From NCBI GenBank assembly GCA_964557535.1, contig CAZLAD010000002.1, positions 21,560 through 85,559 on the forward strand: 64,000 bases of DNA. Reading direction: 5' to 3'. A program made the position numbers and the translations under genes. Each line of letters starts with the position of its first letter. Position 1 is the stretch's first letter. Of this stretch, positions 9 to 61,641 are shown one piece after another. Below the pieces are notes generated by a model. It saw nothing but the letters and a program-made list of their open reading frames with translations. It did no database searches and was not told the DNA's origin. The stretch comes from an uncultured Candidatus Saccharibacteria bacterium. Its GTDB lineage: Bacteria; Patescibacteriota; Minisyncoccia; Phycocordibacterales; CSBR16-119.

Positions 9-482
9 GTGAGCAGTTTAACGCAGTTCCCCGAGATGATGGGCGGCAGATTGAAAACCTTGCACCCGATGGTCTTTGGACCCATCCTTGGAAGGACAAG
101 TGTACTGAGCGACATCAAGTCCATGCAGGATCACAAGATGCCGCTCATCGACATCGTCGTCGTGAACCTGTACCCTTTCAATGAAGAAGTCGAGAAGGGC
201 GCCAATACAACCCATCAGAACATCATCGAGAAGATCGACATCGGTGGGCCATCCCTGATCCGTGCCGCAGCCAAGAACTACGAACGCGTCAGCGTCGTCT
301 GCGACCCGCGGCATTACGATGTTCTGGCGGACCTTATCGAAAAGGGTGCCGGTATCTCACATGACCAACGCGAGGACTGGGCGGGCCAGGCCTTCGATCT
401 TACTTCCGGTTACGATGAACCGATCGGAAGCTACTTCGCTCGAAGGAGGCTTGCACGCCAGGAAACAGTCACCGGCGCCTAA
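9..482 (+). CDS. purH: PurH-like IMP cyclohydrolase (MGS-like) domain only; 5' end lies outside the window and the ORF stops before any AICAR-transformylase domain (truncated, possibly pseudogene or HGT fragment)
   Basis: Motifs FPEMMGGRLKTLHP, IDIVVVNLYPF and IDIGGPSLIRAAAKN match the PurH N-terminal domain. The ORF ends after the linker. Local GC is ~55%, against ~40% for the neighbours. Confidence 0.55.
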   Translation: MSSLTQFPEMMGGRLKTLHPMVFGPILGRTSVLSDIKSMQDHKMPLIDIVVVNLYPFNEEVEKGANTTHQNIIEKIDIGGPSLIRAAAKNYERVSVVCDPRHYDVLADLIEKGAGISHDQREDWAGQAFDLTSGYDEPIGSYFARRRLARQETVTGA

Positions 483-567: not shown

Positions 568-948
568 CTAACCAAACGGCCACCATGGCTTCATCCCCTT
601 AATCCTTTTCTTGAGACTTCGCGCCCCACGGACAAACATCGTCTGAGATCTTCCCTTTCTGTCTTTAATCTCGCGCAGAGCTTCGTCACGTACGAGATCA
701 ATGGCCGCGAGTAATTCTCCTGAATGATTTTTTATATAAAATTCTTTACCTTCAAACGTAAACCGAACTTCTGCCATATACACGTCTTCGCCTTTCTGGT
801 GGTGGTTTGATTCTTTGCCAATCTCTACGAAGACATTGAAATCTCGATCATGATCTAAAAATTTACTGAATGAATTTATTTTTTCGTTTACGTAATCTTT
901 GATTTCTAGCGTCAGATCAATATTGGTTGCCTTGATATTTATGTTCAT
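568..948 (-). CDS. hpf: Ribosome hibernation promoting factor / ribosome-associated inhibitor (HPF/RaiA family)
   Basis: Size and sequence pattern (NINIKATNIDLT..., VRFTFEGKEFY) are typical of sigma-54 modulation protein/HPF. Confidence 0.7.
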   Translation of the reverse strand: MNINIKATNIDLTLEIKDYVNEKINSFSKFLDHDRDFNVFVEIGKESNHHQKGEDVYMAEVRFTFEGKEFYIKNHSGELLAAIDLVRDEALREIKDRKGRSQTMFVRGARSLKKRIKGMKPWWPFG

Positions 949-2068: not shown

Positions 2069-2193
2069 CTTCCTATCTTATCAAAAGTTTGCTTTTTAAG
2101 CCCTTTTTGGCTAATATTTGGCAGTATCTTCGAAAAGGTACACATTGAAAACTAAATATTCCCCGGTAGCGCAGCGGTAGCGCAGTTGCCTGT

Positions 2194-2756
2194 GAGAAAT
2201 GTAATGGTATACTTATTTTGTGTCTACCACAAGAAAAGAGACCAGAACATACTCCGATCGTGCAGAATATATGCGAGAAGCAGTTAAACGAAGACGTATA
2301 AAGCTTCGTGTAATGGCTCGTGAATATGCTGGCGGTAAATGCAGAATCTGTGGGTACAATAAATCTTCCCGAGCATTAAATTTCCACCATCTTGATCCAA
2401 AGAAAAAAGACTTTGGTTTGGCGGATGGCGGAATAACCAGATCTTGGGAAAAAACTCGCAAAGAAATAGACAAATGTATATTACTTTGCGCAAATTGTCA
2501 CATGGAAGTGCACGACGGAATTACGCAGCTCCCTTCGGAAACGAAGAGATGAAAAACAAGGTGAATTGTCTGGAAGCCCGAGCTGTAACAACAGCGGGTA
2601 ATCAGCAGCCAAGCCTCAATAATTTTTGAGGAAGGTTCAGAGACTATCCTAAACGGAGTAGGCCGAGAGTTTCGGTCGAAGCGCCTTGCACCTAAATTCC
2701 GATTCGGAACACGGTGATGATATAGTCCATTCCTAGAAGTGATTTTAGGGTAAATG
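2194..2756 (+). ncRNA. Group I self-splicing intron (ORF-containing), inserted between tRNA positions 35/36
   Basis: The catalytic-core conserved elements are all present: P-like caacagc (~2600), Q aatcagcagcc (2610-2620), R gttcagagactat (2636-2648) and S gatatagtcc (2719-2728). The intron ends in G before exon 2. Confidence 0.75.
2220..2552 (+). CDS. HNH homing endonuclease encoded inside the group I intron
   Basis: Carries CRICGYNKSSRALNFHHLDP...CILLCANCHMEVH, the HNH/zinc-finger motif. Lies entirely within the intron, 5' of the ribozyme core. Confidence 0.75.
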   Translation: MSTTRKETRTYSDRAEYMREAVKRRRIKLRVMAREYAGGKCRICGYNKSSRALNFHHLDPKKKDFGLADGGITRSWEKTRKEIDKCILLCANCHMEVHDGITQLPSETKR

Positions 2757-2834
2757 TAAGCAATTGGTCGCAGGTTCGAATCCTGCCCGGGGAGCCAAGT
2801 CGTGCGGAGTTATCCCGCACGAGACGCATCAATA

Positions 2835-2871
2835 TTTGTATCAGAAAAACCGCTTAGAATGAGCGGTTTTT
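2835..2871 (+). terminator. Rho-independent terminator after the tRNA (aaaaaccgct...agcggttttt), preceded by a second hairpin at 2799-2825
   Basis: Perfect 10-bp stem plus a T-run. Confidence 0.6.
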
Positions 2872-2901: not shown

Positions 2902-5900
2902 GTGAATTTTGAAAGAAATCTAAAACCCAACAAACTGGACGTCGGGTCAGTTGAGGATTTGTCCGAAAATCAAGAATCAAAGGAAAATCTAAATCAGGCA
3001 CATGAAAAAATTGTGTCTGTCTTGAAAGTTTTTAAACCAGAAGATATTTCATCAGATGAATTTCTTGATGAGGTGGTGGATAATTTATTTGAAGATGCTA
3101 AAAAACTCCAATTATCAAGGGGTCAACTTTTAGAGACCGATGAAGCTGTTTACTCTGAAATGAGAGAAATTTTGATTTCAAGATTCAAACAAATTTCCCA
3201 AGACTACTATGCTGATTATAAAGATATGAAAACGGAGCAATCTGGCCGAGATCTTTGTAGAAAAGCCAGACTTGGTTTGATTTTACTTGATGATCTGTCG
3301 GACTTCGAAGAAGAATTCACAAAAAGATATAACACGCCAAAAAATGACGATCCGAGACAATTAAATTTTGATAATGTTGTTCGCTATTTAAATTTGGATT
3401 GGCAAAACCCACTGAAAGTCAATGAAATAGAACTGTTGATACAAAATGGATACCTAGAAAAGATGTGTGACTTCAATGGAACACTCTACGGTTATATCGA
3501 AGGGACGCCAGAAGAGTTATTGAATGAGATGTCAAAGTCCGGTTTTGCTGGGTCTGCTCGTTGGTCAGACATAAATCATGCTCTTGGGGCTGTAGCGGGA
3601 AGCGAAGATCAGAAATATAGTAGAAAAGCGTTTGAGAATCTAATTGCAGGAAAATATATTAGAGGTATTGCTGAAAATATAAACGCTTTTGAAAACATAG
3701 ATCTAGAAGACCTAGCGATGGTTGGCCTAGACGCCAAAGACTTTATCAAGTTAATACTTGATAGATACGGAATAGACGACCCAACAATAGGAGATAAATT
3801 GAAGGATTTTGTTAAGCATAGCCAGATTAATTTTTTCGATGAAGAGCTAATTGTAAAAAAATGGCTAGGTTTAAAATTAAACAAAGTTCTGGAACAAGAC
3901 AGTAAGTTTTTTGATATTAGAGATGTAGAGCATTGTAAGAAAGTTATAGAGGCAGGATATCTAGGATTGGCGATATGGGACAATAAAATCTTTGAGGAGG
4001 TTGTTAAGAATGATTATGATTGGCTGCTCAATATAGCCAGAGAAAATCATCAAGAGCATCTCCTGCTCCGCTGTCCCGGTATTGGAAACGTCCTTAAAAA
4101 GGAAGATCAACTTGTATATGGTAAGAAACTTATTTCGGAGGGCAAATGGTATGTATTATCATCAATATTGGGCAATATAAGATACGCAGATTCACATTTT
4201 TCTTCTCAAACATTTGATCAAGATATATACGATTCTATCTCGAGCCATGATTTCCATCCGCATCCTGGAAGCTTTAAAAACTTAAATGAAGAGACTCTTG
4301 AGATTCTTTCTGAAAGGTTCCCTGATTTTATAGAACAGGATCCTCTGAGTATAACTAGTTTCGAATTCGGAGAAAATTCGAGATTAGAGGGATATAAGAG
4401 ATACAAGGAATTTATGCTTGAAGTTGAAGCTTTGTTCGACATTCGATTAAGTAAAGAGAGGCTAGAGACGATGAATTTTAATTTTAAAAGATTATCAAAG
4501 CTTTCTTTGGATCAAGGCTTAGAAAATATAAGAAGAAAGGCTTCTTTATACAAAAAAATCGAATCAGTGGCTATTTCTCAGGGGCACGACAAAGAACAAG
4601 TTTTTGATACCTTTGGTTGGATGTTGAATGATTCACATAGCGCTACACCCATAAGAGAAGAGGTCATTGATGAACTAAAATATGTTCCGAAGTCTCTTCA
4701 CGAAACTGAGAGATGTTTAACTATCTTGAATAGATTGACTGGACTTGATCGAGATAAAAAAACCCGAATAGCAATGGAACTATCTATGATCGCAGGATCA
4801 GAATTTTTGGGGGCCGAAGATGTTATATATGAACGATATTTCCGTATTACTTTGCCTGAAGAATCTAGATCTCCCACCAAAGATGAATTTCCTGCGCGAG
4901 AATCTATGGTTACTCAAATACCTGATTTTTCTACAGAATATAAGGAGATGAGCGAGCATTCGCAAGCAGTGTGGCAAAAATTATTCCCATGGTCTGAATC
5001 TTTGAGAGAACTTGAAGGTATCCAGAAACATGCAAAGAGGAGAGAATATGACCCTTGGCAAACAGAACTAGTTCCGCTTCTTAAACACGAACTTGGAAAT
5101 CTGTCATTTGCTAATCCAGAAGATGGAAAAATTTTAGTTGAATACGTAAAGAGATTTGGAATGAAAAATATTCCCTATCTATATTCGGTATTTTCCCAAG
5201 TTTATAAAAGTAAAGATGTAGATCAAATACCACCTCACATTAAGGGAATCCTTGCAGATGATTTCGGTATCAACGCAGAAGAACTTTGTAAAAAAGATAA
5301 AAAGAATTTGGGTCTAATTTTTGCTGAAATGGAGAAAATGCAGACTAGACTAGTTAGCGATATCAGGAATGAAGATTTATCCTTGCTAGAAAGAGTACAA
5401 AAATCACCTTATTTACTTGAAACGATTAAATCTATAGTTGGCAATTCGGGCCATGCGCATGGAGTAAGTACCGAAGAGGCTTTGGAGCTTTATAGAAAAG
5501 CCGTAAAAGAATCACCTAAGAAATTTTTGTTACCAGAAGGATATGAAGAAGTAGAAGTGAGTGTCCCGCAGGTTATATTTGAAGAGGAAGAAAAATCTGA
5601 GGTGATTCAGAAAGAAAAAGAGAAAATATTAAGCAATTCAGATCTAAGAACTTTGGCTGTTGGCTATCGTGACGTTTATAAGCAAAATAAAGACTCAGAT
5701 AACACAACTGATCTATCTAGCAAACGAGATGAAATTAGAAGTTTTATTCAGAGCTCGATAGATGATTTGAACTTACGTTTAAAACAAGAGGAAGAAAAAG
5801 AAATTAAAAATGAAAAAGCAATCTTCGGTCTAAAGTCTAGGATGCAAGCGCTTGAAGAAAAAAAGAAAGATTTCGATATAAATTTTGAAAAATCTTTGAG

Positions 5901-6798
5901 TAAAGAAATTTCTATAAAAGAAAGAATGGAAATACTTTTCGATCAAATACCAGAAAATTGGCCAGGAAAAAAGAACCTCATGATGGATATTAGCCTTTCA
6001 GATATAAAAAATAAAATGCCAGAAGGTTATGATCTGTTCAAATCAGGCATTCAAAATCACGATGACGAGGCTTCAATCTCTCAGATTTATGAATTTATAG
6101 CAAACCATGTTAAGGAACACTATTTAAACAAAAAACATGGACAAGGAGAAGCTGTGGAAACTGATAATAAGGCTTTGATCAAAGCGTTGAAGCAATATTG
6201 GGGTGTACAAGACTTTGATAACTCAATCTTAGCAGTTAGCCATGTAAAATTAGCGGAGTTAAACAAGGGTTCGATCTCAGAGAATAATCTTAATTTAAGT
6301 TTTGTGCCTTCAAAGGGACTGCAAAGAATTTTCAGTGGCGATTTAGGAAGAGCGTGTACGAGTCGAGAAAACGGCAACCTCGCAAAGGGTGAATTTGAAC
6401 CTATCACATCTTATTCAATCATATTAGATAAAGGAACAAAAAACGAAAGGTTTGCCGGATCTTTCCTGGTTATAGAAACGGGGACAGAAGACGGTAAGCC
6501 AGTAATGGTGCTTAGAGCAAACAACCCGCAACAAAATCTGTTTAATATGGTCCACGGTGACTCATTGGTTGCGTCTATTGTTAGTGAAGTAAAGGCGCTT
6601 GCGAAAAGAAGGGGTATAGATAGAGTGGTGGCGCCTCTATCTGGGGGAGCAACTTCAAACAGAACAGAGGTTGCGGAATACTATGACAAGACGTTTTCAA
6701 GTGGTCAGAAAATTGGTCTTAAAAAATCTCCGGAAACAAACTTTAATGGCTATGATATTTGGAATAAGGAGTCAGTGAATGCCGTCACTGTCATTTAG
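2902..6798 (+). CDS. Giant (1298 aa) acidic/lysine-rich hypothetical protein, GTG start, no signal peptide and no recognisable catalytic motifs; cargo of the tRNA-Asn-linked insertion
   Basis: Uninterrupted 3.9-kb ORF in a compact genome. No Walker, HExxH or other motif recognised. Confidence 0.6.
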   Translation: MNFERNLKPNKLDVGSVEDLSENQESKENLNQAHEKIVSVLKVFKPEDISSDEFLDEVVDNLFEDAKKLQLSRGQLLETDEAVYSEMREILISRFKQISQDYYADYKDMKTEQSGRDLCRKARLGLILLDDLSDFEEEFTKRYNTPKNDDPRQLNFDNVVRYLNLDWQNPLKVNEIELLIQNGYLEKMCDFNGTLYGYIEGTPEELLNEMSKSGFAGSARWSDINHALGAVAGSEDQKYSRKAFENLIAGKYIRGIAENINAFENIDLEDLAMVGLDAKDFIKLILDRYGIDDPTIGDKLKDFVKHSQINFFDEELIVKKWLGLKLNKVLEQDSKFFDIRDVEHCKKVIEAGYLGLAIWDNKIFEEVVKNDYDWLLNIARENHQEHLLLRCPGIGNVLKKEDQLVYGKKLISEGKWYVLSSILGNIRYADSHFSSQTFDQDIYDSISSHDFHPHPGSFKNLNEETLEILSERFPDFIEQDPLSITSFEFGENSRLEGYKRYKEFMLEVEALFDIRLSKERLETMNFNFKRLSKLSLDQGLENIRRKASLYKKIESVAISQGHDKEQVFDTFGWMLNDSHSATPIREEVIDELKYVPKSLHETERCLTILNRLTGLDRDKKTRIAMELSMIAGSEFLGAEDVIYERYFRITLPEESRSPTKDEFPARESMVTQIPDFSTEYKEMSEHSQAVWQKLFPWSESLRELEGIQKHAKRREYDPWQTELVPLLKHELGNLSFANPEDGKILVEYVKRFGMKNIPYLYSVFSQVYKSKDVDQIPPHIKGILADDFGINAEELCKKDKKNLGLIFAEMEKMQTRLVSDIRNEDLSLLERVQKSPYLLETIKSIVGNSGHAHGVSTEEALELYRKAVKESPKKFLLPEGYEEVEVSVPQVIFEEEEKSEVIQKEKEKILSNSDLRTLAVGYRDVYKQNKDSDNTTDLSSKRDEIRSFIQSSIDDLNLRLKQEEEKEIKNEKAIFGLKSRMQALEEKKKDFDINFEKSLSKEISIKERMEILFDQIPENWPGKKNLMMDISLSDIKNKMPEGYDLFKSGIQNHDDEASISQIYEFIANHVKEHYLNKKHGQGEAVETDNKALIKALKQYWGVQDFDNSILAVSHVKLAELNKGSISENNLNLSFVPSKGLQRIFSGDLGRACTSRENGNLAKGEFEPITSYSIILDKGTKNERFAGSFLVIETGTEDGKPVMVLRANNPQQNLFNMVHGDSLVASIVSEVKALAKRRGIDRVVAPLSGGATSNRTEVAEYYDKTFSSGQKIGLKKSPETNFNGYDIWNKESVNAVTVI

Positions 6799-9992: not shown

Positions 9993-10043
9993 TTTATAAG
10001 TTGGTAAGTAAAGCAAAATATATACGGAAAAGACATTCCGGAA

Positions 10044-45882: not shown

Positions 45883-46167
45883 ATGTTATTACTAATTAAT
45901 AAATCCCGATGATGGATACAAAAAGCCCACCACGGGTAGGGCCCGAAAGCCCTCATACGAGTTTCCTCGTATGGCCAATCAGACAACCCCATGATGGGTT
46001 CTTTATGTCTGATTGGACTTTTTCACCATGCCCAGTAAGGGGTTTAGGCTACTTTATTTATTCGATTGTTCGACCATAATACCAAATAATAGGCATTACG
46101 CCCACCACCATAGCAGATTCCAGGATTTTGCGAAGGGGGTTACCAACAAGTTTAGATCTAAATTTTT

Positions 46168-52950: not shown

Positions 52951-53024
52951 TGGCTGCGGAACCTGGACTCGAACCAAGATACCCTCCTCCAGAGGGAGGT
53001 GTCCTACCATTAGACGATTCCGCA
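52951..53024 (-). tRNA. tRNA-Gln(CUG), CCA encoded
   Basis: Cloverleaf UGCGGAA-UC-GUCUAAUGGUAGGAC-A-CCUCC-CUCUGGA-GGAGG-GUAU-CUUGG-UUCGAGU-CCAGG-UUCCGCA-G-CCA, similar to E. coli tRNA-Gln2. Confidence 0.75.
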
Positions 53025-60832: not shown

Positions 60833-60909
60833 TGAGCCATCTCCCGGGATTGAACCGGGGGCCTCATCTTTACGAAAGATGCGCTCTACCAACTGAGCTA
60901 AGATGGCTC
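60833..60909 (-). tRNA. tRNA-Thr(CGU)
   Basis: GAGCCAUCUUAGCUCAGUUGGUAGAGCGCAUCUUUCGUAAAGAUGAGG-CCCCGGUUCAAUCCCGGGAGAUGGCUCA. Anticodon loop UUCGUAA. Confidence 0.75.
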
Positions 60910-60939
60910 GCCAATTGTGTGCGACATTTATCCCGTGAG

Positions 60940-61012
60940 AGCCGATGGCGAGACTTGCACTCGCGGCCTCCCCCTTACCATGGGGGTGCTCGACTACCTG
61001 AGCTTCATCGGC
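60940..61012 (-). tRNA. tRNA-Thr(GGU)-like gene with unusual features (T-loop TGCAAGT, A8, U73, acceptor helix extendable to 11 bp by flanking complementarity); possibly a divergent or pseudo tRNA
   Basis: GCCGAUG-AA-GCUC-AGGUAGUC-GAGC-A-CCCCC-AUGGUAA-GGGGG-AGGCC-GCGAG-UGCAAGU-CUCGC-CAUCGGC-U. Confidence 0.5.
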
Positions 61013-61170
61013 TCTCATGAGACAAAGTATTTTATCTTGGCGACAGTCGTCATGATAGCCAAAAGCCCGCTATATTTCAAGCGAGCTTTCTTTGACGAGA
61101 ACAAAAAGGGATTGAAAAGTAGAGGCTTTTATGTTAGTTTTTACCTATTGTCGCGTCAGACGCGACTTAT

Positions 61171-61244
61171 GTCGGGGTAGCTCAGACGGTTAGAGCGTAG
61201 CACTCATAACGCTAAGGTCGAGAGTTCGATTCTCTCCCCCGACA
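61171..61244 (+). tRNA. tRNA-Met(CAU) (elongator-type; could also be tRNA-Ile2)
   Basis: GUCGGGG-UA-GCUC-AGACGGUUA-GAGC-G-UAGCA-CUCAUAA-CGCUA-AGGUC-GAGAG-UUCGAUU-CUCUC-CCCCGAC-A. Confidence 0.75.
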
Positions 61245-61371
61245 CAGCGTGCGGGGAGGAAAGCAAACGACTTTGCTTTCCGTGAGGAATCGAAGGCCGG
61301 AGTCATGTCTCAAGCAATTAAAGAGACAGGCGAGGCGGGGTCGCGACCTTTTGCCAGGCAAAAGAGTTGTG

Positions 61372-61392
61372 ACCGATTCTCTCCCCCGACAC
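61372..61392 (+). repeat. Direct repeat of the last 20 nt of tRNA-Met plus 2 flanking nt (cgattctctcccccgacaca), 128 nt downstream of the tRNA
   Basis: 61227-61246 and 61373-61392 are identical. Confidence 0.7.
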
Positions 61393-61444
61393 AAAAACAT
61401 TGGCGATTTTAGGCTTTTTGTGATAGACTTTCGCCATTGTTATT

Positions 61445-61518
61445 GCGGGCGTAGCTCAACTGGTTAGAGCACTCCCCTGTCACGGGAGAGGTTGCGGGTT
61501 CGAGTCCCGTCGCTCGCG
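61445..61518 (+). tRNA. tRNA-Asp(GUC)
   Basis: GCGGGCG-UA-GCUC-AACUGGUUA-GAGC-A-CUCCC-CUGUCAC-GGGAG-AGGUU-GCGGG-UUCGAGU-CCCGU-CGCUCGC-G. Confidence 0.8.
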
Positions 61519-61520
61519 CA

Positions 61521-61560
61521 GCAAAGTGAAAAGCCGCCTTTTGGCGGCTTTTCACTTTTT
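61521..61560 (+). terminator. Strong rho-independent terminator (aagtgaaaagccgcc tttt ggcggcttttcactt + T-run)
   Basis: 15-bp stem. Confidence 0.7.
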
Positions 61561-61570
61561 CTTAAGTTTG

Positions 61571-61641
61571 TTGCGGGGGGCCGACTCGAACGGCCGTCCT
61601 CAGGTTATGAGCCTGATGAGTTACCACTACTCCACCCCGCT
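61571..61641 (-). tRNA. Initiator-type tRNA-Met(CAU) (1:72 mismatch, A73, CUCAUAA loop; ends approximate)
   Basis: AGCGGGG-UGGAGUAGUGGUAACUCAUCAGG-CUCAUAA-CCUGAGGACGGCCGUUCGAGUCGGCC-CCCCGCA-A. Compared with E. coli tRNA-fMet CGCGGGG...CCCCGCA-A. Confidence 0.65.

Follow-up and report, generated by a model that had tools for sequence, protein, structure and literature searches.

The subject of this analysis is a tRNA-Asn gene that is interrupted within its anticodon by a group I intron carrying an open reading frame (ORF) for an HNH endonuclease. It lies in what we call the window, the whole 64,000-nucleotide (64-kb) stretch of DNA that was analyzed, which comes from contig CAZLAD010000002.1 (assembly GCA_964557535.1) of an uncultured Candidatus Saccharibacteria bacterium.

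The split tRNA-Asn gene

The locus is composed of two tRNA exons, the intron between them, and two features inside the intron.

2160-2193 (+): 5' exon of tRNA-Asn, comprising the acceptor, the D arm, the 5' anticodon stem, and C32 U33 G34 U35 (ARAGORN)
2194-2756 (+): group I intron of 563 nucleotides (nt), with omega-G at 2756 (Rfam, comparative structure, and minimum free energy (MFE) fold)
2205-2213 (+): extended -10 promoter-like box TGgTATACT (TGGTATACT), 6 nt 5' of the HNH start codon (promoter scan)
2220-2552 (+): HNH ORF of 110 amino acids (aa) with a GTG start, in the P1 loop of the intron (ORF translation, Pfam, and PHROG)
2757-2797 (+): 3' exon of tRNA-Asn, comprising U36 A37 A38, the 3' anticodon stem, the variable loop, the T arm, the acceptor, G73, and CCA (ARAGORN)

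When 2160-2193 and 2757-2797 are spliced together in silico, ARAGORN returns a 75-nt tRNA-Asn(gtt) with a normal cloverleaf, and in its intron-aware mode it reads the unspliced DNA as tRNA-Asn(gtt) i(35,563). A previous annotation of this DNA, the sequence-only reading, had proposed a canonical tRNA-Asn(GUU) with the anticodon loop CUGUUAA and an intron of 563 nt between positions 35 and 36. Both proposals were borne out: the loop after joining is CUGUUAA, and the break falls between U35 and U36, inside the anticodon. No tRNA is called across 2160-2797 by ARAGORN in default mode or by the Rfam tRNA model. The 5' exon ends in CCUGU, the intron ends in AAAUG, and the 3' exon opens with UAAGCAAU. 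At the 5' splice site the last base of the 5' exon, a U, takes part in a U.G wobble; G73, the discriminator (G at 2794), and the CCA are both encoded. There are six uninterrupted tRNA genes elsewhere in the window (Gln, Thr x2, Met x2, and Asp, at 52951-53024 and 60834-61641), and since these have no intron, the intron invasion is specific to tRNA-Asn within the window.

Ribozyme structure and its comparative support

The intron matches the Rfam model Intron_gpI (RF00028) at 2476-2749, over the full model from 1 to 253, with 72.6 bits against a gathering threshold of 50 (E 1.7e-16). This score and the covarying helices described below substantiate the group I assignment made in the sequence-only reading, and the strings quoted there as Q, R, and S elements were located at the positions given in the following list of predicted ribozyme elements.

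2190-2194 (+): 5' strand of P1, exon CUGU plus intron G1, pairing with 2524-2528
2524-2528 (+): internal guide sequence CGCAG, which is the 3' strand of P1 (comparison with relatives)
2530-2549 (+): P2 hairpin with a GAAA loop (6/6 pairs compensatory; in the MFE fold)
2557-2563 and 2682-2688 (+): P3, CAAGGUG with CGCCUUG (95% of cells paired, three pairs compensatory; forms a pseudoknot with P7)
2567-2636 (+): P4-P5-P6 domain (helices 90-99% paired, 14/17 pairs compensatory; Rfam alignment)
2567-2573 and 2602-2607 (+): P4
2577-2598 (+): P5
2608-2636 (+): P6
2600-2610 (+): Q element, within the P4-P6 domain
2642-2646 and 2723-2727 (+): P7, GACUA with UAGUC, in the R element (2635-2647) and the S element (2719-2728), the canonical R/S core of RF00028
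2647-2657 (+): P7.1-like hairpin, between P7 and P3'
2661-2677 (+): P7.2-like hairpin, between P7 and P3' (7/7 pairs compensatory)
2689-2716 (+): P8 hairpin (3/4 pairs compensatory; in the MFE fold)
2732-2749 (+): P9 hairpin, followed by GUAAAUG up to omega-G 2756 (4/4 pairs compensatory, 83% paired)

The comparative values come from 46 non-identical introns of related loci, which were reduced to "mini-introns" by trimming the P1 loop and aligned with MAFFT; a few columns of the alignment are misregistered, for example P4 in the row of the window. From these sequences RNAalifold recovered all helices but the pseudoknotted P3. Standard pairs, P3 included, occupy 95.5% of 2814 cells, compared with 35-42% when the partners are slid by one to three columns, and compensatory changes are found in 43 of the 62 pairs; the observed values were reached by none of 500 shuffles. 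The anticodon stem of the exons is paired in 100% of cells and all four tested pairs are compensatory. The C-G, U-A, G-C, and U.G pairs of P1 are unchanged in 46/46 introns, the wobble being U2193.G2525 in the window, and the first intron nucleotide covaries with its guide partner (G-C in 41, C-G in two, and A-U in one). P7 is uninformative for covariation because it is invariant in 46/46. The MFE fold of the single sequence 2519-2756 independently gives P2-P9 (z = -2.86); an Rfam covariance search and a fold were among the checks suggested in the sequence-only reading. The predicted structure is a complete, covariation-supported group I fold from P1 to P9, with a P3/P7 pseudoknot, a U.G pair at the 5' site, and omega-G at the 3' end.

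The HNH endonuclease gene

The intronic ORF matches the Pfam HNH family PF01844 with 28.9 bits (cut-off 21.4) and 11 PHROG families, nine of which are annotated as HNH endonuclease, down to E 2e-29, in agreement with the previous identification of an HNH ORF within the intron. In an alignment with 29 homologs, the four cysteines of two zinc-binding CxxC motifs (C41, C44, C90, and C93) and the catalytic residues H56/H57, N92, and H98 are invariant; the mean column identity is 63%, with 36 invariant residues altogether. The AlphaFold (AF2) model, with a predicted local distance difference test score (pLDDT) of 79.4, has a long N-terminal helix and then a strand-strand-helix arrangement at residues 53-57, 86-90, and 91-98.

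It had been thought that the ORF is followed by the group I core. The ORF is indeed present, but it is placed inside the ribozyme and not simply before the core: because the guide sequence is at 2524-2528 and the 5' strand of P1 is at the 5' splice site, the whole ORF falls within the P1 loop. Both the guide sequence and P2 (2530-2549) share nucleotides with the final 10 codons of the ORF (...G I T Q L P S E T K R), and the guide CGCAG is found within the T-Q codons of a conserved C-terminal ITQLP. This ITQLP is kept only in intronic copies of the gene; free-standing copies such as those at locus L003 (...LAKIPKK) and P0011 end otherwise. Such a restriction to intronic copies is the signature expected of an RNA-level constraint on the overlapping codons.

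There is no Shine-Dalgarno sequence upstream of the HNH start codon. The extended -10 box of the window conforms to TGnTATAMT, a motif shared by 42 of 49 related loci, intronic and free-standing alike; the distance from the motif to the first in-frame start codon 3' of it is most often 6 nt, and the P1-loop sequence around the box is otherwise variable. This arrangement suggests a dedicated intron promoter that would produce a leaderless HNH mRNA. A -35 box (TTGCCT) that the promoter scan placed inside the anticodon stem lacks conservation in relatives, and we make no claim that it functions.

Distribution in prokaryotic genomes

The HNH protein has 467 cluster-level homologs. The best 120 of these have lengths of 99-155 aa and identities of 68-89%, and those that are named come from bacteria of the Candidate Phyla Radiation (CPR), namely Paceibacterota, Nomurabacteria, Kaiserbacteria, and Parcubacteria, a distribution that accords with the genome having been described as CPR-like. 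A genome scan with one genome per species yielded 55 HNH loci, almost all from CPR/Paceibacteria, the loci having been chosen by the presence of HNH. The HNH gene is located in a tRNA-Asn intron at exactly the same position, CTGT/...G/TAA, in 42 of the 55 loci (two of them cut by contig ends). It is free-standing in approximately 10 others, beside a tRNA-Asn with an ORF-less intron of 206-317 nt at the same site; two loci (L052 and L054), in non-CPR genomes, have it beside an intron-less tRNA-Asn, and one (L007) has no tRNA within 3 kb. The sequence-only reading had called the arrangement unusual. That description holds against the hosts of the classical literature but not in public CPR genomes, where 42 of 55 species-level loci have the same arrangement; it is therefore widespread there, and the window is no rarity.

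The free-standing gene is upstream of the tRNA at L003, L009, L024, L026/L027, and L051, downstream at L043, convergent at L010, and divergent at L023; L029, an incomplete locus, is probably another free-standing copy. In the ORF-less introns the P1 loop is just 4-7 nt long (e.g., C-AGUAA-G at L003), and those of L003, L009, L010, L024, and L043 are of the same type and have the same fold as the ORF-bearing introns, which indicates that the fold does not depend on the HNH protein in cis.

In at least 20 loci the tRNA has an hpf-like gene upstream of it (568-948, minus strand, in the window), and this synteny marks an ordinary chromosomal tRNA-Asn locus. We rejected ddl as the conserved upstream neighbor, the syntenic gene being the hpf-like ORF 568-948. 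For related loci ARAGORN's intron mode also returned "tRNA-Thr(tgt) i(33)", "His(gtg)", and "Ser", which were likewise rejected as mis-resolved forms of the Asn gene; the exon alignment reads CTGT/intron...G/TAA in all of them. The distant HNH relatives at L054 (3001-3228; 3268-3338) and L052 (3001-3231; 3334-3404), with 53-60% identity, adjoin intron-less tRNA-Asn genes in Solirubrobacterales and Pyrinomonadaceae genomes, respectively, and the Pyrinomonadaceae locus is at the edge of a 21-tRNA array.

The arrangement is far beyond chance, because the same split gene is present in more than 40 independent genomes and its helices covary. It could still be asked whether the window gene is a dead pseudogene or an assembly artifact, with a separate intact tRNA-Asn serving translation, a suggestion that is given some room by our having inspected 64 kb of the genome. 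The recurrence of the split gene in that many independent assemblies speaks against it, as does the fact that the exon stems change by compensatory substitution only while the ribozyme core is intact, which together argue for selection for a spliced, functional tRNA. We consider this explanation to be very improbable, and the earlier observation is confirmed as to its features and coordinates.

Free-standing and phage relatives of the HNH family

Between the window and other genomes, the HNH proteins are 70-89% identical and the intron with its exons is 67-83% identical at the DNA level. For the hpf-like neighbor the protein identity is only approximately 24-61%, and blastn does not align the flanks. 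In a neighbor-joining tree of the HNH proteins, built from a short protein and without support values, free-standing copies are interleaved with intronic ones at approximately five places. These observations hint at mobility. The ORF is polymorphic at the tRNA-Asn locus, being intronic in 42 cases and free-standing alongside ORF-less introns in approximately 10.

The family extends to viruses. We found HNH relatives in 189 stretches of IMG/VR (33-63% identity); approximately 55 of the 80 loci that were fetched have tRNA genes within 1.5 kb, and several directly abut tRNA-Asn according to ARAGORN. Among cultured phages the family is found in 439 records, with FelixO1-like, Bastille, Lak, and crAss-like phages represented, and in some cases it lies within annotated tRNA regions. 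On the 436-kb viral contig IMGVR_UViG_3300032782_000001 (L058), a tRNA-Asn gene at 1182-1483 is split at CTGT/...G/TAA by a group I intron of 227 nt that reaches 76.6 bits with RF00028. Directly 3' of it comes an HNH relative (1501-1776+) and then an intact second tRNA-Asn (2043-2117), all in a tRNA array. According to a 2014 review, all phage group I introns known at that time sat in protein-coding genes (PMC3984707). Other phage tRNA genes (L098/L099, 909-1189; L084, 1964-2256, minus strand; L062, L065, and L135) appear to carry group I introns of approximately 200 nt. L098 has 70.8 bits in Rfam and is read by ARAGORN as Phe(gaa) i(34,207), and L084 has 59.3 bits and is read as Leu(taa) i(36,211), both at or above gathering.

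That the same HNH family is found as free-standing genes beside tRNA-Asn with ORF-less introns, and also within the tRNA arrays of phages, agrees with an endonuclease that targets tRNA genes and would have repeatedly moved into and out of the intron. A functional parallel, and the best-studied analog of an endonuclease in a tRNA array, is SegB of phage T4, a free-standing homing endonuclease in a tRNA cluster with its preferred site inside the tRNA-Asn gene of T2L (PMC2330249). In its place among tRNA genes it resembles the free-standing HNH copies beside tRNA-Asn (L003, L009, L010, L023, L024, L043, and L054) and those in the phage tRNA arrays; in contrast to them it is a GIY-YIG and not an HNH enzyme and has no intron, and the resemblance is functional only.

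The alternative is that the tRNA-Asn gene of Paceibacteria has long held the intron as a fixed resident, inherited vertically and in essence immobile, with the HNH protein kept for a useful role such as a maturase that aids folding or splicing, defense, or competition. The conserved synteny with the hpf-like gene upstream in at least 20 genomes would be expected in that case, and the HNH is unusually conserved for a selfish gene, but the residues of nuclease catalysis are among the invariant ones. The intron is also present in nearly every locus recovered, although this near-universal presence is biased because the loci were selected by the presence of HNH. Against immobility, similarity between genomes is far higher for the intron and HNH than for their flanks, the HNH gene is also found free-standing and in phage tRNA arrays, and ORF-less introns of the same type keep the fold. 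An immobile resident is in our view unlikely.

Ribozyme type and known tRNA introns

The bacterial tRNA hosts of group I introns named in the literature are Leu(UAA), fMet, Ile2(CAU), and Arg(CCU) (PMC8450103, PMC5733544, PMC3984707), and no account of a group I intron in a bacterial tRNA-Asn was found in the literature that we searched. Group I introns have been mentioned briefly as a frequent feature of CPR tRNAs (PMC8172020). A 2025 preprint by Nakagawa et al. (10.1101/2025.07.03.662931), cited in PMC12641178, has a title on group I introns in Patescibacteria tRNA genes and, to judge by that title, may already cover the tRNA-Asn element.

The two hairpins between P7 and P3' are not part of the Rfam consensus, in which they are handled as a 33-nt insertion. 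In the IC3 subgroup the core is compact and no further hairpins stand between P7 and P3', and the classical IC3 tRNA introns are inserted at 34/35 or after position 36. With hairpins at 2647-2657 and 2661-2677, the window ribozyme departs from the IC3 core. It is like the IC3 tRNA introns (cyanobacterial and plastid Leu(UAA), Azoarcus Ile(CAU), and Agrobacterium Arg(CCU)) in its short P1 and in exons held by the anticodon stem, but those introns have no ORF and no extra hairpins after P7, in contrast to the HNH within the P1 loop and to the two hairpins of the window intron. A bacterial tRNA with its anticodon loop interrupted by an ORF-bearing group I intron has a counterpart in Synechocystis PCC 6803, whose tRNA-fMet intron, reportedly described by Bonocora and Shub in 2001 (a study cited in PMC3984707), is said to encode I-Ssp6803I, of the PD-(D/E)XK type. 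That intron differs in its tRNA, its endonuclease, and its IC3 subgroup from the window intron, which is in tRNA-Asn at 35/36, encodes an HNH protein, and has P7.1/P7.2-like hairpins.

The hallmarks of the IA2 subgroup are two domain-7 hairpins (P7.1 and P7.2) and an extended P9 (P9.0, P9.1, and P9.2) (PMC4227781), and in the phage Twort ribozyme P7.1/P7.2 encircle the G-binding pocket (PMC1995217). P7.1/P7.2-like hairpins are present in the window ribozyme, and its P9 is a single hairpin plus 7 nt. The phage IA2 introns in DNA polymerase genes that encode I-HmuI, I-BasI, and I-PfoP3I (PMC3428280, PMC3984707) share with it an HNH homing endonuclease, putative in the window, and the two domain-7 hairpins; they differ in their protein-coding host and P9.0-P9.2, compared with a tRNA host, a much smaller HNH in the P1 loop, and a single P9 in the window. 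From these features, the window ribozyme resembles the phage-type IA introns, unlike the classical IC3 tRNA introns.

A metagenome scan for the core string AGAGACTATC-N6-12-GAGTA (in RNA form, AGAGACUAUC-hairpin-GAGUA) gave 120 matches, 40 of which are genuine group I introns. Approximately 21 of the 40 are in tRNA-Asn at the same site and approximately 15 are outside tRNA genes; among the latter, L190, L205, and L225 have DNA-polymerase-like 3' exons as read by eye without a search. At L212 (metagenome Ga0208375_1001450, ~10014-10036, minus strand), a tRNA-Phe(GAA) is split after U33 (33/34); the intron is 231 nt long, shares the P7-P7.1 core, and has an apparent guide, GGGG, that pairs with the exon CCCU. 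It is the same ribozyme type in a different tRNA and at a different site.

A second, compact ribozyme type is present at the same tRNA-Asn 35/36 site in three species-level lineages, L026/L027 (3385-3600), L047 (2960-3499), and L051 (1561-1766). It is without the P7.1/P7.2 hairpins, has 36-39 bits with RF00028, which is below gathering, and reads GGGAAC in place of GCCAAG and GACUAGAUACC after P7. The HNH gene is inside the intron in L047 and upstream in L026 and L051. This compact type looks closer to the classical IC3 tRNA introns.

Surroundings of the locus in the window

A perfect 8-bp hairpin, TCGTGCGG-AGTTAT-CCGCACGA, is located at 2800-2822, from 3 nt past the CCA, and lies 5' of a terminator-like hairpin, AAAAACCGCU-loop-AGCGGUUUUU, at 2845-2871 (plus strand), 3' of the tRNA; the latter was found by eye, is not listed by the scan, and is of low confidence. 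Directly 3' of the tRNA is an ORF of 1298 aa (2902-6798, plus strand) with no Pfam match at E <= 0.01. The first ~600 nt of the window, where there is an ORF at 9-482 (plus strand), have a GC content of 0.53-0.56, and the sequence after them 0.33-0.47; the shift near 600 may reflect a boundary in composition or a foreign segment. A full-length LOOT RNA (Rfam RF03000) is present at 45938-46050 (minus strand), with 79.8 bits against a gathering threshold of 46.4.

A model for splicing, expression, and homing

We consider it very likely that the element is a group I intron that splices itself, with a separately transcribed HNH gene that enables homing. The mechanism would be the standard one of group I self-splicing combined with an intron-borne homing endonuclease. 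A pre-tRNA transcribed from the tRNA promoter would fold, and an external guanosine would attack after U35; the freed 3'-OH of U35 would then attack after G2756, joining the exons and releasing mature tRNA-Asn. During splicing the exons would be held together chiefly by the anticodon stem. The HNH gene would be transcribed apart, from the extended -10 box within the intron, as a leaderless mRNA. We hypothesize that spliced and translated transcripts are separated in this way: transcripts from the internal promoter, without the 5' exon, would be translated and unable to splice, and those from the tRNA promoter would be free to fold and splice and would go untranslated, because the start codon is internal and without a Shine-Dalgarno sequence. 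The HNH protein would nick or cut intron-less or HNH-less tRNA-Asn genes, and repair from the intron-bearing copy would spread the ORF and the intron.

Several points tell against this explanation. Splicing, the activity of the HNH protein, and its target site are all inferred from sequence. A P10 helix was sought by eye and amounts at most to UAA/UUA, 3 bp that are not conserved. The 110-aa protein has no recognizable separate DNA-binding domain. Its best Foldseek matches in the PDB are all HNH nucleases (Cap5, the Cas9 HNH, Gme HNH, T5 SciA, and T4 endo VII) but are weak (best E 0.085), and the PDB sequence search gave marginal matches only (e.g., a group II maturase HNH, E 0.16), so no specific solved homolog can be named. 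The GTG that starts the window HNH is a poor leaderless start in Escherichia coli. The high conservation of HNH could instead reflect a function that benefits the host. The neighbor-joining tree of the HNH proteins has no support values. An intron-less tRNA-Asn allele was not met in close CPR relatives, no search having been aimed at them, and the 64-kb window holds no second tRNA-Asn, the rest of the genome being outside our view.

Because P10 is weak, it is probably the tRNA anticodon stem that mainly aligns the exons, as in other tRNA introns. The weak P10 and a P1 of only 5 bp are also what one would expect if the ribozyme self-spliced inefficiently alone and needed a protein cofactor, perhaps a chaperone of the host or the HNH protein; a requirement for cofactors in vivo is shared by many group I introns (PMC3984707). 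The core, however, is complete, hairpins of the P7.1/P7.2 kind usually stabilize the G-binding pocket (PMC1995217), and ORF-less versions persist in tRNA-Asn genes. Dependence on a cofactor is decidedly unlikely, and self-splicing of the intron is the explanation that we prefer.

It is possible, and we put this forward only tentatively, that the CPR tRNA-Asn locus presents a staged series, in which an HNH gene beside an intron-less tRNA-Asn came to lie beside an ORF-less intron and then entered the P1 loop, its 3' end being recoded as the guide sequence and P2. In such a series the leaderless promoter would partition the transcripts, and CPR bacteria and large phages with tRNA arrays would have exchanged the module.

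The new aspect is the combination of a tRNA-Asn host, the 35/36 site, an IA-like ribozyme, a tiny HNH in the P1 loop with a dual-coded guide and P2, and free-standing siblings, to which the leaderless promoter can probably be added. None of this alters how group I splicing or homing is known to work. The element adds Asn, and 35/36 within the anticodon, to the hosts and sites known for group I introns in bacterial tRNAs, and it places a phage-like ribozyme type, instead of the classical IC3 type, in a tRNA gene. If specific for a site in the tRNA gene, the 110-aa HNH would be among the smallest homing nucleases. The intronic and free-standing copies of one HNH family at one locus, with relatives in phage tRNA arrays, provide a tractable system for studying endonuclease invasion of introns and exchange from phage to CPR bacteria. 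As default tRNA finders overlook the gene, many CPR genomes will seem to lack tRNA-Asn, and this apparent loss can distort completeness estimates and claims of reduced translation machinery. If the split gene is the sole tRNA-Asn gene, all asparagine decoding in these organisms would rest on a phage-type ribozyme.

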